From: a virus
Lineage: Duplodnaviria > Heunggongvirae > Uroviricota > Caudoviricetes
Virus record (IMG/VR): IMGVR_UViG_3300032954_000003
Span: 18,847 to 82,846 of that record
Reading direction: 5' to 3' (one strand)
Length of the DNA: 64,000 nt
Positions 28,928 through 29,097 of the stretch are shown piece by piece. The position numbers and the translations under genes were made by a program. Under the pieces are notes generated by a model, which was not told the origin of the DNA, did not search any database, and saw only the letters and a program-made list of their open reading frames with translations. Each line of letters opens with the position of its first letter. Position 1 is the first letter of the stretch.

Positions 28928-29097
28928 GGTATTCCTCCTTGGTTGGTATGCGGGACGAGGGTGGAAGGTGAGCCTGAGGGATCACTAACCTCGTCCCGCG
29001 TCGGTAACCGTAGCGCAAAGTTATTGTTCAAGCAAACCCAAAATACCCGCTATTTGCGGACTTATCTAGCTGGCTAGCTAGATTGAAAGGAGTCGCA

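Follow-up and report, generated by a model that had tools for sequence, protein, structure and literature searches.

Dispersed copies of a symmetric 14-bp word as candidate operator-like sites in an uncultured tailed phage

The divergent region at positions 29,047 to 29,082 of the stretch studied here raises the question of what a short palindrome, repeated almost unchanged across a phage genome, is for. The stretch, hereafter the window, comprises 64,000 nt of an uncultured 109-kb tailed phage in which the perfectly symmetric 14-bp word TCTAGCYRGCTAGA occurs in a dozen copies, mostly between genes. A first-pass annotation, made from the letters of the window alone, had reported a recurrent palindrome at seven sites. 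All seven were recovered where it had placed them, six as exact CTAGCYRGCTAG (starting at 11707, 24246, 29066, 43511, 55499 and 60444) and the seventh, at 5088, as TTAGCCGGCTAG with a single mismatch. Dinucleotide shuffles of the window gave an expectation of 0.02 exact copies, and none of 100 shuffles reached 6. Five further exact copies lie on the same contig at window-equivalent positions -13834, -3876, 68909, 75498 and 81458. The contig-wide motif count that the annotation had proposed as a check came to 11 exact copies, where a third-order Markov model predicts 0.066, far above chance frequency; this census covers 100.6 kb of the 108.8-kb source contig, k141_4285166, with identical proteins on a second contig, and the 12 sites discussed below are the 11 exact copies and the one-mismatch copy at 5088. 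The CTAG tetramer is not enriched (251 observed versus 248 expected in the window), so the enrichment is specific to the 12-mer. The palindrome was the top non-tRNA family in a listing of repeats, and CTAGCCGGCTAG was the only palindromic 12-mer with three or more copies.

The copies vary in a restricted way. Ten arm positions are invariant across the 11 exact copies, and the centre is CG, TG, CA or TA only, all transitions of CCGG. The earlier description of the core as a perfect 12-bp palindrome holds for copies with a CCGG or CTAG centre and fails for those with CTGG or CCAG, which are asymmetric by one transition; the latter two occur in both orientations relative to transcription, with no orientation rule. 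With both sides pooled, the outward +1 position is A in 17 of 24 flanks (P = 1e-6; left 7/12, right 10/12) and the outward +3 position in 15 of 24. The symmetry reaches beyond the core on both sides (TnT-core-AnA), and the full site of 12-bp core and flanks is a 14-18-bp dyad, TnT-CTAGC-YR-GCTAG-AnA. Invariant arms, a variable centre and symmetric A-rich flanks are probably best read as the mark of a dimeric DNA-binding protein, as had been suggested at the outset. Our preferred reading, to which we give a probability of roughly 0.45, is that the palindromes may be operator-like sites for a phage-encoded, homodimeric, sequence-specific DNA-binding protein. It draws on the recurrence and symmetry of the sites, their intergenic bias, where they lie with respect to predicted promoters and terminators, and the fact that the phage has a ParB-family gene, and from these we infer protein binding, the identity of the binder and a regulatory effect.

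The copies in the window and the features that contain or adjoin them are as follows; the cores are listed with no strand assigned.

5088-5099: core with one mismatch, TTAGCCGGCTAG, overlapping the stop codon of 5088-5861, a minus-strand EndoVII/HNH gene
11707-11718: core CTAGCCAGCTAG in a divergent intergenic region, with the ATG of gene 11734-11991 15 nt on
24246-24257: core CTAGCTGGCTAG, its first TAG being the stop codon of 23278-24249, 10 nt before the ATG of 24268-24906
29066-29081: core CTAGCTGGCTAG overlapped by a shifted copy CTGGCTAGCTAG, with 16-20 nt left to the GTG at 29098
40983-40994: degenerate core CTAGCCGGCTCG (minus strand CGAGCCGGCTAGA) in a minus-strand promoter-like spacer, upstream of tRNA-Gly
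40971-40999, minus strand: promoter-like site TTGCAC-N17-TATAGT holding the degenerate core, upstream of tRNA-Gly
43511-43522: core in the tRNA-Leu/tRNA-Tyr spacer, extended to TCTAGCTGGCTAGA at 43510-43523
55499-55510: core CTAGCCGGCTAG inside the spacer of a plus-strand promoter-like site before the uS12 gene
55495-55523, plus strand: promoter-like site TTGCCT-N17-TACCCT, ending 7 nt before the SD-less ATG of uS12 (55531)
60444-60455: core CTAGCTAGCTAG, 10 nt past the stop codon of 60113-60433
60455-60482, plus strand: intrinsic terminator-like hairpin (11 bp, 7 GC pairs), then GCATTTTG

The double copy at 29066 makes a 20-nt dyad, ATCTAGCT-GGCT-AGCTAGAT. About 89% of the genome is genic, yet only two of the 12 sites lie inside ORFs; the other 10 fall between genes or overlap no more than a stop codon (binomial P <= 2e-4, with two closed reading frames allowed for). 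As the first-pass annotation had it, the core at 24246 spans the stop of the gene preceding 24268, and the 60444 variant abuts a terminator, the last base of the core being the first base of the stem. The region 5071-5101, said to lie between convergent genes, is instead flanked by two minus-strand genes, 4453-4923 and the EndoVII/HNH gene. The core also falls within the 20-nt tRNA spacer (43505-43524) that it was said to fill exactly, but even the 14-bp extended palindrome occupies only 14 of the 20 nt; tRNA-Leu and tRNA-Tyr are both on the minus strand, downstream of a promoter-like site at 44060-44088.

The spacer between -35 and -10 is a classical position for an operator. The two cores in promoter spacers share nearly one register, TTGCCT-AGCCGGCTAGAGATTGC-TACCCT before uS12 and TTGCAC-GAGCCGGCTAGATACGC-TATAGT before tRNA-Gly, and the 68909 core lies at about +25 from another predicted promoter. 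We rejected the promoter spacer as a general rule because only 55499 and 40983 fit it. Five of the 12 cores stop 10-20 nt short of a start codon and exclude the SD, a placement that a promoter or an mRNA element would explain too. The cores at 24246, 43511, 75498 and 81458 stand alone, with no upstream module. In the operator reading the sites would mark transcription-unit boundaries, being placed in the spacer of two sigma70-type promoters (uS12 and tRNA-Gly) and about +25 from a third (68909), directly ahead of the start codon, or its SD, of the first plus-strand gene to follow minus-strand cassettes, and just 5' of stem-loop or terminator structures. Protein bound at promoter-embedded sites would occlude RNA polymerase, protein bound between cistrons would act as a roadblock or use the site as a loading point, and the phage would gain one switch over many operons. 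An operator or roadblock model is permissive, in that nearly any position fits it.

The first-pass annotation had taken an upstream TTGCGG or TTGCGC hexamer as a -35 element and TAGA(G/A)(A/T)T as a -10 element, giving a phage-specific promoter with an embedded operator. It reported the hexamer in four copies, and the pattern CGC[N]A[AT]TTGCG indeed has four matches in the window, at exactly those four sites. The promoter reading itself was not supported. The hexamer is present at only four of the 12 cores, and no fixed -35/-10 spacer of 16-18 nt was found, the distances being 15, 17, 15/19 and 19 nt at 5088, 11707, 29066 and 55499. The promoter families of this phage follow TAnnnT at -10, and the final T of the supposed -10 element is present in two of 12 copies (29066 TAGATT and 81458 TAGAAT), the sequence elsewhere reading TAGAGA, TAGAAG, TAGAAC, TAGACA or TAGATA. 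The terminator-abutting copy at 60444, the two copies inside ORFs and one in a minus-strand context are likewise misfits for a plus-strand promoter. TTGCGG is rather the 3' arm of a second palindrome, CCGC-WAWTT-GCGG, which on the minus strand scores as a terminator-like stem-loop with a T-run just upstream of predicted sigma70-type promoters of the form TTGCnn-N17-TAnnGT. The four copies in the window are:

5069-5081, minus strand: second palindrome CCGCAAATTGCGG, a stem-loop followed by TTTCTAGTTA
5020-5048, minus strand: sigma70-type promoter-like TTGCGT-N17-TAGCGT, facing gene 4453-4923
11685-11701, minus strand: second palindrome or stem-loop CGCGCAAATTGCGGGCG, with a T-run on the minus strand
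11646-11674, minus strand: sigma70-type promoter-like TTGCCT-N17-TAACGT, 10 nt before the ATG of the minus-strand gene 11156-11635
29047-29059, minus strand: second palindrome CCGCTATTTGCGG, a terminator-like stem-loop with ATTTTGGGTT
29007-29035, minus strand: sigma70-type promoter-like TTGCTT-N17-TACGGT, facing the minus-strand gene 28721-28927
55477-55487, minus strand: second palindrome CGCTATTTGCG
55435-55463, minus strand: sigma70-type promoter-like TTGCAT-N17-TATCGT, facing the minus-strand gene 55122-55349

The composite module, CCGCAAWTWGCGG followed by a T-run and TTGCnn-N17-TAnnGT, thus has four copies, and the early cassettes hold four copies of a stem-loop followed by GGGGTTGACG-N17-TACTAT. 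A stem-loop with a sigma70-type promoter, repeated at the borders of variable genes, is the defining arrangement of PeSLs, and it is found in these flanking modules and not in the core. The upstream module is inverted relative to the core at 68909, so core and module are separable elements. A constant spacing between the core and the -35 of the minus-strand promoter was rejected, the values being 29-35 and 56 nt. The promoter annotation, though appealing, appears to be wrong, TTGCGG forming one arm of a stem-loop in a PeSL-like cassette of opposite orientation.

A different kind of promoter could be proposed, in which the core or its right half GCTAGA would be a phage-specific, late signal, read either by a phage RNA polymerase or by an RNA polymerase that carries a phage-encoded sigma or accessory factor. 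The plus-strand structural blocks have no evident sigma70-like promoter upstream, whereas the minus-strand cassettes and the tRNAs have clear ones, and a core stands ahead of six plus-strand blocks: portal (5088, ~1.15 kb upstream), head module (11707), tail chaperone and tape measure (29066), baseplate (43511, ~0.6 kb upstream), uS12 (55499) and the block starting at 68939. The tail module itself contains a further core, at 24246, just ahead of the sheath and tube genes. Cores occur at divergent and never at convergent junctions, the base after the core on the plus strand is A in 10 of 12 copies, and transcripts starting at or just after the CTAG-A step in the five copies that end 10-20 nt before a start codon would have 10-20-nt leaders still holding the SD. 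Nevertheless we regard such a promoter as unlikely. Sigma factors and single-subunit polymerases recognise asymmetric promoters, whereas core and flanks here are symmetric. One at 60444 would fire straight into the 11-bp terminator, two copies are intragenic, and the -3876 copy, in a minus-strand early region, precedes a stem-loop and a consensus sigma70 promoter. The closest relatives carry the same structural genes without the motif, and we count expression there against the promoter. No RNA polymerase or sigma gene was found among the proteins scanned, in a contig where many ORFs are unannotated and ~8 kb lies outside the scan.

Any DNA palindrome is also a hairpin in RNA, and the core could act as an RNA element, a 5-8-bp hairpin with a CYRG loop serving as a processing site (which the annotation had offered for the tRNA-spacer copy), a 3'-end stabiliser, a nut/put-like signal or a translational operator. 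Hairpins were predicted to form in every context tested, five copies abut the SD, one core is in a tRNA spacer, where processing must occur, and a small phage protein matches a PHROG annotated as 'RNase E'. In one direction of transcription, seven cores are followed after 0-14 nt by a stem-loop or terminator (-13834 and 60444 on the plus strand; -3876, 5088, 11707, 29066 and 55499 on the minus strand). The stem is nonetheless short and weak, 5 bp or, at 29066, 8 bp, with fold z-scores of +0.63 to -3.2. The strongest scores came from stretches that also hold a second palindrome, a terminator or a tRNA end, and the lowest of them reflects an adjacent terminator. No compensatory change was seen among the 12 copies, where no arm position varies and so nothing can co-vary; the arms are sequence-invariant, not structure-conserved. 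Being in a promoter spacer, the degenerate copy at 40983 comes before the predicted transcription start, and the two ORF-internal copies would cut or structure coding mRNA. Rfam searches returned tRNAs and nothing else. We consider a role in RNA quite improbable overall, though the tRNA-spacer copy may be a processing site.

The core might instead be a module-boundary repeat, either part of a PeSL-like mobile cassette or a selfish palindrome marking the minus-strand cassettes, HNH genes and tRNAs that have been shuffled in. Three stem-loop families, unrelated to one another, all show the succession of core, stem-loop and sigma70 promoter, and the minus-strand cassette beside 29066 is absent in one relative (L005) and replaced by one different minus-strand gene in another (L004). 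Cores resemble ~14-nt insertions in tight junctions: the Leu/Tyr spacer is 20 nt against 0-7 nt in other tRNA spacers, and at the 24246 junction the genes are 18 nt apart, as against 13 nt for their equivalents in L004 and an overlap in L005. The paralogous early cassettes carry the core intact once, degenerate once, as a half-site once and not at all once; in C2-C4 it is decayed or missing, so the site is dispensable at least there, a point that also counts against the operator reading. Precedent exists in PeSLs, which mediate shuffling (PMC4122927), and in Cluster O phages, where recombination between dispersed repeats makes indels (PMC4351075). Against this, 10 invariant arm positions in 11 copies with otherwise unrelated flanks argue for purifying selection on the sequence itself, and the strong intergenic bias and promoter-spacer placement suggest function. 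We know of no mechanism for moving a 14-bp palindrome, and a boundary repeat is in our judgement the most doubtful of these alternatives.

Four further ideas were set aside: a restriction or methylation site, with no supporting gene seen; homing-endonuclease targets, the sites lying outside conserved genes and mostly not beside HNH genes; invertase crossover sites, cores being at one border of each cassette only; and an N4-type hairpin promoter, whose geometry would strip the SD from the transcript.

Returning to operator-like sites, the most attractive candidate for the binder is P0071, an orphan ParB/Noc-family protein of the phage. A profile built from P0071 and 49 homologues and searched against known structures matched Noc, ParB and Spo0J (E = 5e-15 to 1e-12), with E = 5e-15 to 7e-14 for Noc 7NG0/7NFU and ParB 4UMK/1VZ0/6T1F. 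The Noc match pairs profile positions 25-198 with Noc 28-206, covering the CTP-binding domain and reaching well beyond it, as far as a helix-turn-helix (HTH)-like stretch that we read by eye. G47, R49 and R50 of the G-x-R-R CTP-binding motif are invariant in the family, and 48 of 50 homologues carry Pfam ParB_N; relatives of a ParB_N-DUF6551-AAA-DUF6197 module come from samples ERZ27313170 and ERZ1426850, and the contigs with the nearest ParB homologues are 1.4-6 kb long. Only the profile search gave structural matches, phmmer with P0071 against the PDB returning none; a word-indexed search found no homologues, and an AF2 single-sequence model (pLDDT 44) was set aside. No ParA/CbiA partner matched among the proteins scanned or the precomputed Pfam labels. 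A ParA-type ATPase is needed for partition and not for Noc- or KorB-like regulators. With P0071 as binder, the sites would be parS-, OB- or NBS-like. By analogy, the 12 palindromes would then be parS/OB-like loading sites of the P0071 CTPase, which would clamp and slide in the manner of KorB and so silence or insulate many units, a scheme that we hold to be rather unlikely; that it would amount to a genome-wide ParB-CTP regulatory network, not a partition system, we put no higher. Other candidate binders are a 70-aa protein (L033 9796-10008), a 222-aa protein (L033 13022-13690) and the products of window genes 39795-40124 and 60701-61369. HTH-like stretches were read by eye in these four small proteins, and Pfam scans found no HTH or RHH domains in small neighbouring proteins.

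If the sites are operators of one protein, they define a compact regulon spanning head, tail, baseplate, tRNA, uS12 and replication modules, in a deeply novel phage lineage. They also offer a handle that can be tested at once, since a single 14-bp oligonucleotide could serve to capture the regulator.

Several known systems share the anatomy of invariant arms, variable centre and dispersed copies, and these precedents strengthen the operator reading. One is the repeat of Cluster O mycobacteriophages, TGTTCGG-NNN-CCGAACA in Corndog, which is 17 bp long and present in dozens of copies, 34 in Corndog (PMC4351075). Like the core, it is phage-specific and dyad-symmetric, with invariant arms and a variable centre, and it is dispersed, with many copies in short intergenic regions, some in genes and no orientation bias. 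The Cluster O repeat is absent from the host and from other phages, and the core was likewise missing from the other phages searched; for Cluster O the authors proposed a dimeric regulator with unclear consequences (PMC4351075). Corndog and its relatives lack an integrase, and none was seen in 100.6 kb of the phage here. The two repeats differ in sequence, in arm length (7 versus 5-6 bp), in centre (3 versus 2 bp) and in copy number (34 versus ~12). In Cluster O one-third of the copies lie inside genes and most are away from promoters, whereas here 10 of 12 are intergenic and several are promoter-embedded or start-proximal, and Cluster O viruses are unrelated siphoviruses of Mycobacterium. A Corndog-type phage encodes Ku. 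The core would add a second independent example to the unexplained dispersed palindromes of the Cluster O type, with clearer positional clues in the promoter-spacer copies and a concrete candidate of the ParB/KorB/Noc family.

ParB-family sites, among them KorB OB, Noc NBS and the IR sites of N15, are 13-18-bp palindromes with invariant arms and a free centre, like the core, and the phage likewise encodes a ParB/Noc-family protein with G-x-R-R. There are about a dozen KorB OB sites, placed near promoters and serving global silencing. OB on RK2 is TTTAGCGGCTAAA, and KorB silences over long range as a sliding clamp (PMC11790492); the OB half-site TAGC resembles the CTAGC of the core, with a half-site spacing that differs by 1 bp. 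The SopB sites IR1-4 of N15, GTGCGACC-NN-GGTCGCAC, are dispersed centromeres (PMC7205306) with the same arms-plus-NN design and several copies over one replicon. Unlike these systems, the phage has no ParA partner among the proteins scanned, and its genome is that of a lytic-looking myovirus, not a plasmid or plasmid-prophage.

Stoperators of L5 and Cluster A are more than 20 short repressor sites in promoters and intergenic gaps that block initiation and elongation (PMC9283540). They often overlap stop or start codons, as some cores overlap a stop codon, but they are asymmetric 13-mers bound by a monomer and oriented with transcription, in temperate phages, whereas the core is symmetric, follows no orientation rule and occurs with no lysogeny module found. 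Neither an integrase nor a classical immunity repressor was seen in the 100.6 kb (Pfam/PHROG scans and precomputed labels), so an L5-like role in lysogenic silencing is doubtful. The SAS/ESAS repeats of Cluster K, of unknown function, lie just upstream of start codons and can hold the upstream stop codon, and a second, inverted-repeat element stands ahead of about half of the SAS copies, at distances that vary (PMC3203893). SAS are asymmetric, hold the SD, sit 3-7 nt from the start and accompany non-structural genes only (PMC3203893), whereas the core is symmetric, lacks the SD, lies 10-20 nt from the start and is start-associated in five of 12 copies. The PeSL cassettes of T4-type phages (PMC2839356, PMC4122927) are like the flanking modules in having a stem-loop and a sigma70-type promoter at variable-cassette borders, some of them degraded. 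PeSLs as described have no additional 12-bp palindrome, and the core here is an extra, separable element.

The motif appears to be lineage-specific. Neither it nor a substitute palindrome was found in the three closest relatives (68-57% sheath identity) in ~20 kb each around the sheath gene. A protein-seeded scan of IMG/VR found no relatives, and two DNA-pattern scans gave single unrelated matches only. The composite pattern occurred in at least 119 stretches of JGI metagenomes, and those listed were all either single chance matches or microsatellite-like (CTAG)n repeats, none of them homologous to the phage. A full-text literature search for three 12-mers found no phage paper, and a P0021 search of genome contigs for a host or prophage gave no match. 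Megablast of 8 kb against INPHARED found no match to known phages, and by tblastn of the sheath the nearest cultured relatives are Arthrobacter and Gordonia phages, at ~26% identity. The phage described here is a lytic-looking, tRNA-rich myovirus, probably with deazaguanine-modified DNA.

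In the window, six exact copies of the palindromic core CTAGCYRGCTAG were found (11707, 24246, 29066, 43511, 55499 and 60444) against 0.02 expected, and together with a single-mismatch copy, TTAGCCGGCTAG, at 5088 they bear out the recurrence at seven sites described in the first-pass annotation. A repeat search of the window ranked the core as the top family after the tRNAs, and CTAG by itself occurs at the expected frequency. We extended the motif search beyond the window, using the 100.6 kb recovered of the 108,815-bp source contig (ERZ27256576:k141_4285166, ENA metagenome; window-equivalent -17435 to 83141), and the excess held: exact cores at -13834, -3876, 68909, 75498 and 81458 bring the number to 11, compared with 0.066 expected under a third-order Markov model. 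Three further single-mismatch copies (40983, 62702 and 62900) come close to what chance would give, 0.6 being expected in the window; that at 40983 is notable for its location in a promoter-like spacer.

The ten arm positions are identical across all 11 exact copies, while the two central positions read CG (n = 4), TG (n = 4), CA (n = 1) or TA (n = 2), all transitions of CCGG. Outside the arms, A is enriched at outward positions +1 (17/24; P = 1e-6) and +3 (15/24; the two sides pooled, each contributing), and the full site is therefore an 18-bp dyad, TnT-CTAGC-YR-GCTAG-AnA. Comparing the asymmetric centers CTGG and CCAG with the direction of transcription gave no rule. The palindrome could conceivably act as an RNA hairpin, but the stem is short, no positions co-vary, and at 40983 the copy precedes a predicted transcription start. 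The symmetry into both flanks, the invariant arms without compensatory changes, and the pyrimidine-purine-only center argue for an operator-like site of a homodimeric DNA-binding protein, in agreement with the dimeric binder originally suggested.

Of the 12 sites, ten fall between genes or touch just a stop codon, with ~89% of the genome being genic (binomial P = 2e-4, allowing for the single readable frame per strand through the core); the two intragenic cores occupy that single open frame, within plausible ORFs. Two cores lie in promoter-like spacers in nearly the same register, a classical operator position:

55499: core in TTGCCT-AGCCGGCTAGAGATTGC-TACCCT, ending 7 nt short of the uS12 ATG
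40983: core in TTGCAC-GAGCCGGCTAGATACGC-TATAGT, upstream of tRNA-Gly
55531-55923, plus strand: uS12 homologue (Pfam Ribosom_S12_S23, E = 3e-27)

The uS12 gene has no Shine-Dalgarno sequence, and its ATG only 7 nt past the -10-like hexamer TACCCT suggests a leaderless mRNA. Five cores (11707, 24246, 29066, 55499 and 68909) end 10-20 nt ahead of a start codon, with the Shine-Dalgarno sequence of this group just 3' of the core; the one at 68909 starts about 11-25 nt past the transcription start predicted for a TTGCAC/TTGCAT promoter and ends 18 nt ahead of a GTG. Those at -13834, -3876, 5088 and 60444 overlap or closely trail a stop codon, with a stem-loop or terminator 0-14 nt further on, and the minus strand at 11707, 29066 and 55499 likewise reads core, then stem-loop. 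The 43511 core takes up most of a 20-nt tRNA spacer, other spacers in the tRNA runs being 0-7 nt. Cores are found at divergent minus/plus block junctions and at none of the convergent ones. The inter-cistronic cores could serve as roadblocks or loading sites. A late promoter is possible in that no recognizable sigma70 promoters precede the plus-strand structural blocks, most of which have a core ahead of them, but the site is symmetric, one copy (60444) abuts a terminator, another lies in the minus-strand early region, two are intragenic, and the relatives manage without the motif.

The leftmost minus-strand early genes use a second promoter family, GGGGTTGACG-N17-TAC(T/G)(A/C)T with a stem-loop ahead, and include four paralogous cassettes:

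-3933 (window-equivalent), minus strand: early cassette
-1704 (window-equivalent), minus strand: early cassette
-370 (window-equivalent), minus strand: early cassette
690-718, minus strand: early cassette

Their order is stem-loop (loop TGGCCCT), promoter, ~30-nt leader, AAGGAGCAG(A/G)CA and start codon. The core is intact in one (-3876), degenerate in another (near -316), a half-site in a third (775-781) and absent from the remaining one. A passive module-boundary or selfish repeat would explain part of the pattern, namely the decayed copies and the insertion-like look, but does not account for ten positions staying invariant where the surroundings are otherwise unrelated.

Our operator-like reading departs from the first-pass promoter model, in which TTGCGG served as -35 and TAGA(G/A)(A/T)T as -10, a pairing that the sequences do not support: the final T of that -10 is present in just 2 of 12 copies. 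TTGCGG belongs to a second palindrome, CCGC-WAWTT-GCGG, as its 3' arm. A search of the window with CGC[N]A[AT]TTGCG returned the four sites originally noted and no others; there the element is separated from the core by 6-10 nt, which puts it 15-19 nt from the proposed -10. The minus strand of this palindrome scored as terminator-like (stem-loop, then T-rich run), and beyond the T-run at all four sites a sigma70-type promoter-like site points at the adjacent minus-strand gene. These four belong to a wider family, TTGCnn-N10-GATGCGC-TAnnnT, also found ahead of tRNA clusters at 44088, 40999 and -14736:

5020-5048, minus strand: TTGCGT-N17-TAGCGT
11646-11674, minus strand: TTGCCT-N17-TAACGT
29007-29035, minus strand: TTGCTT-N17-TACGGT
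55435-55463, minus strand: TTGCAT-N17-TATCGT
44060-44088 and 40971-40999, minus strand: wider family
-14736 and -16237 (window-equivalent), plus strand: wider family

PeSL cassettes in T4-type phages combine a stem-loop with a sigma70 promoter (PMC4122927), and the flanking modules here resemble them. Core and TTGCGG element are separable units, since the promoter module at 68909 (GCGCAAATAGCG ... ACTTGCATTAGCTACGGT) is inverted relative to the core and the cores at 24246, 43511, 75498 and 81458 stand without the element. The leader of minus-strand gene 28721-28927 holds an 11-bp perfect stem, GCGGGACGAGG...CCTCGTCCCGC (28950-28999, plus coordinates), whose 28-nt loop includes GCCTGAGGG; the 9-mer CCCTCAGGC turns up again on the minus strand beside cores and early cassettes (-3879, -316, 11477, 28980 and 68576). 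A two-copy plus-strand repeat, TA[GC]AATGTCAAGTACC (4205-4231 and 10384-10410), has a good -10 hexamer (TAGAAT/TACAAT), and the second copy would transcribe antisense across minus-strand genes toward the 11707 core.

As candidate binder, the phage encodes P0071, an orphan ParB/Noc-family protein. The profile of P0071 and its homologues matched structures of Noc, ParB and Spo0J with E-values from 5e-15 to 1e-12; for Noc, the alignment reaches from the CTP-binding domain as far as profile position 198. The G-x-R-R motif is invariant, ParB_N was found in 48 of 50 homologues, and an HTH-like stretch, AIGVGQATVQRVGRLQRV, was spotted by eye. Sites of just this design are bound by ParB-family proteins: the KorB OB site is TTTAGCGGCTAAA, and the N15 SopB repeat, GTGCGACC-NN-GGTCGCAC, occurs at four dispersed places. 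By this analogy, P0071 would bind the core; other small phage proteins with HTH-like stretches are also present. A gene module of ParB_N-like protein (305 aa), DUF6551, AAA ATPase and DUF6197 (10001-11705 and 101-1843 of fetched stretches L033 and L155, own numbering) is conserved in two other metagenome contigs (ERZ27313170 and ERZ1426850).

Megablast against known phages gave no match; the sheath is ~26% identical to Arthrobacter phage sheaths and 68% to that of the best metagenomic relative, and the phage has no close relative. In ~20 kb from each of three relatives (68-57% sheath identity), the motif is missing and no other palindrome takes its place; scans of IMG/VR and, among the matches listed, of JGI metagenomes gave chance matches and (CTAG)n microsatellites only. 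This argues for a lineage-specific element, making cross-species conservation unusable as evidence. The minus-strand cassette beside the 29066 core is missing from one related phage (L005), and another (L004) has one different minus-strand gene in that place. In both, the gene that follows the major capsid gene has a leader with a conserved block in common, gctagggcgaccctca[ag]acgcaagggtc...cgcctcaac[ct]aaggagca (L004 1609-1788, L005 3968-4120), which may be a structured 5' UTR.

A literature search turned up no phage paper with the 12-mers. Cluster O mycobacteriophages have the closest analogue, a 17-bp palindrome with 34 invariant-arm copies and a dimeric regulator proposed as binder (PMC4351075). 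L5 stoperators are likewise scattered through intergenic positions, but they are asymmetric and monomer-bound (PMC9283540); Cluster K SAS/ESAS also lie close to start codons and have a second inverted repeat upstream but are asymmetric and contain the Shine-Dalgarno sequence (PMC3203893). The core is a real, newly found case of dispersed phage palindromes of the Cluster O type, for which we infer a regulatory function from sequence.

The phage is myovirus-like, encoding prohead protease, capsid, sheath, tape measure protein and baseplate J; the large terminase (1224-3731, plus) and portal (6245-8461, plus) are each split by intein/LAGLIDADG homing-endonuclease domains. NAMPT and NadR-like Nudix genes are present, and all 21 tRNAs in the window are on the minus strand. 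Further genes, with L numbers denoting fetched stretches, are:

5088-5861, 12011-12808, 12837-13394, 56184-56687 and 57747-58337: free-standing HNH/EndoVII genes, at least six in the window
L033 4050-5729 (window-equivalent 66273-67952): Ro60/TROVE plus vWA gene
L153 13070-15911 (window-equivalent about -12635 to -9794): QueC, GTP cyclohydrolase I and PTPS/QueD, 7-deazaguanine pathway
L008 4909-6593 (window-equivalent -3868 to -2184): neighboring Ku and ATP-dependent DNA ligase

Judging from its 7-deazaguanine pathway genes, the phage DNA is probably hypermodified. Ku of mycobacteriophages such as Corndog and Omega serves NHEJ-type end joining. The translation-related set of uS12 and 25 tRNAs so far is joined by the start of a class II aminoacyl-tRNA synthetase gene (tRNA_anti-codon plus tRNA-synt_2; L033 20811-20918). 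The Ro60 gene is bordered by ~1-kb non-coding stretches (L033 3059-4049 and 5730-6802) holding two tRNA-Met(CAT) genes, a candidate natural place for Y-RNA-like partners; Rfam at gathering thresholds matched nothing but tRNAs. Two paralogous small proteins of 68 and 75 aa with C-termini ...AGG(C) (28721-28927 and 55122-55349, minus) each come first in a minus-strand cassette adjoining a composite element, and with a nearby Prok-JAB protein (51788-52201, minus) they may form a ubiquitin-like conjugation module.
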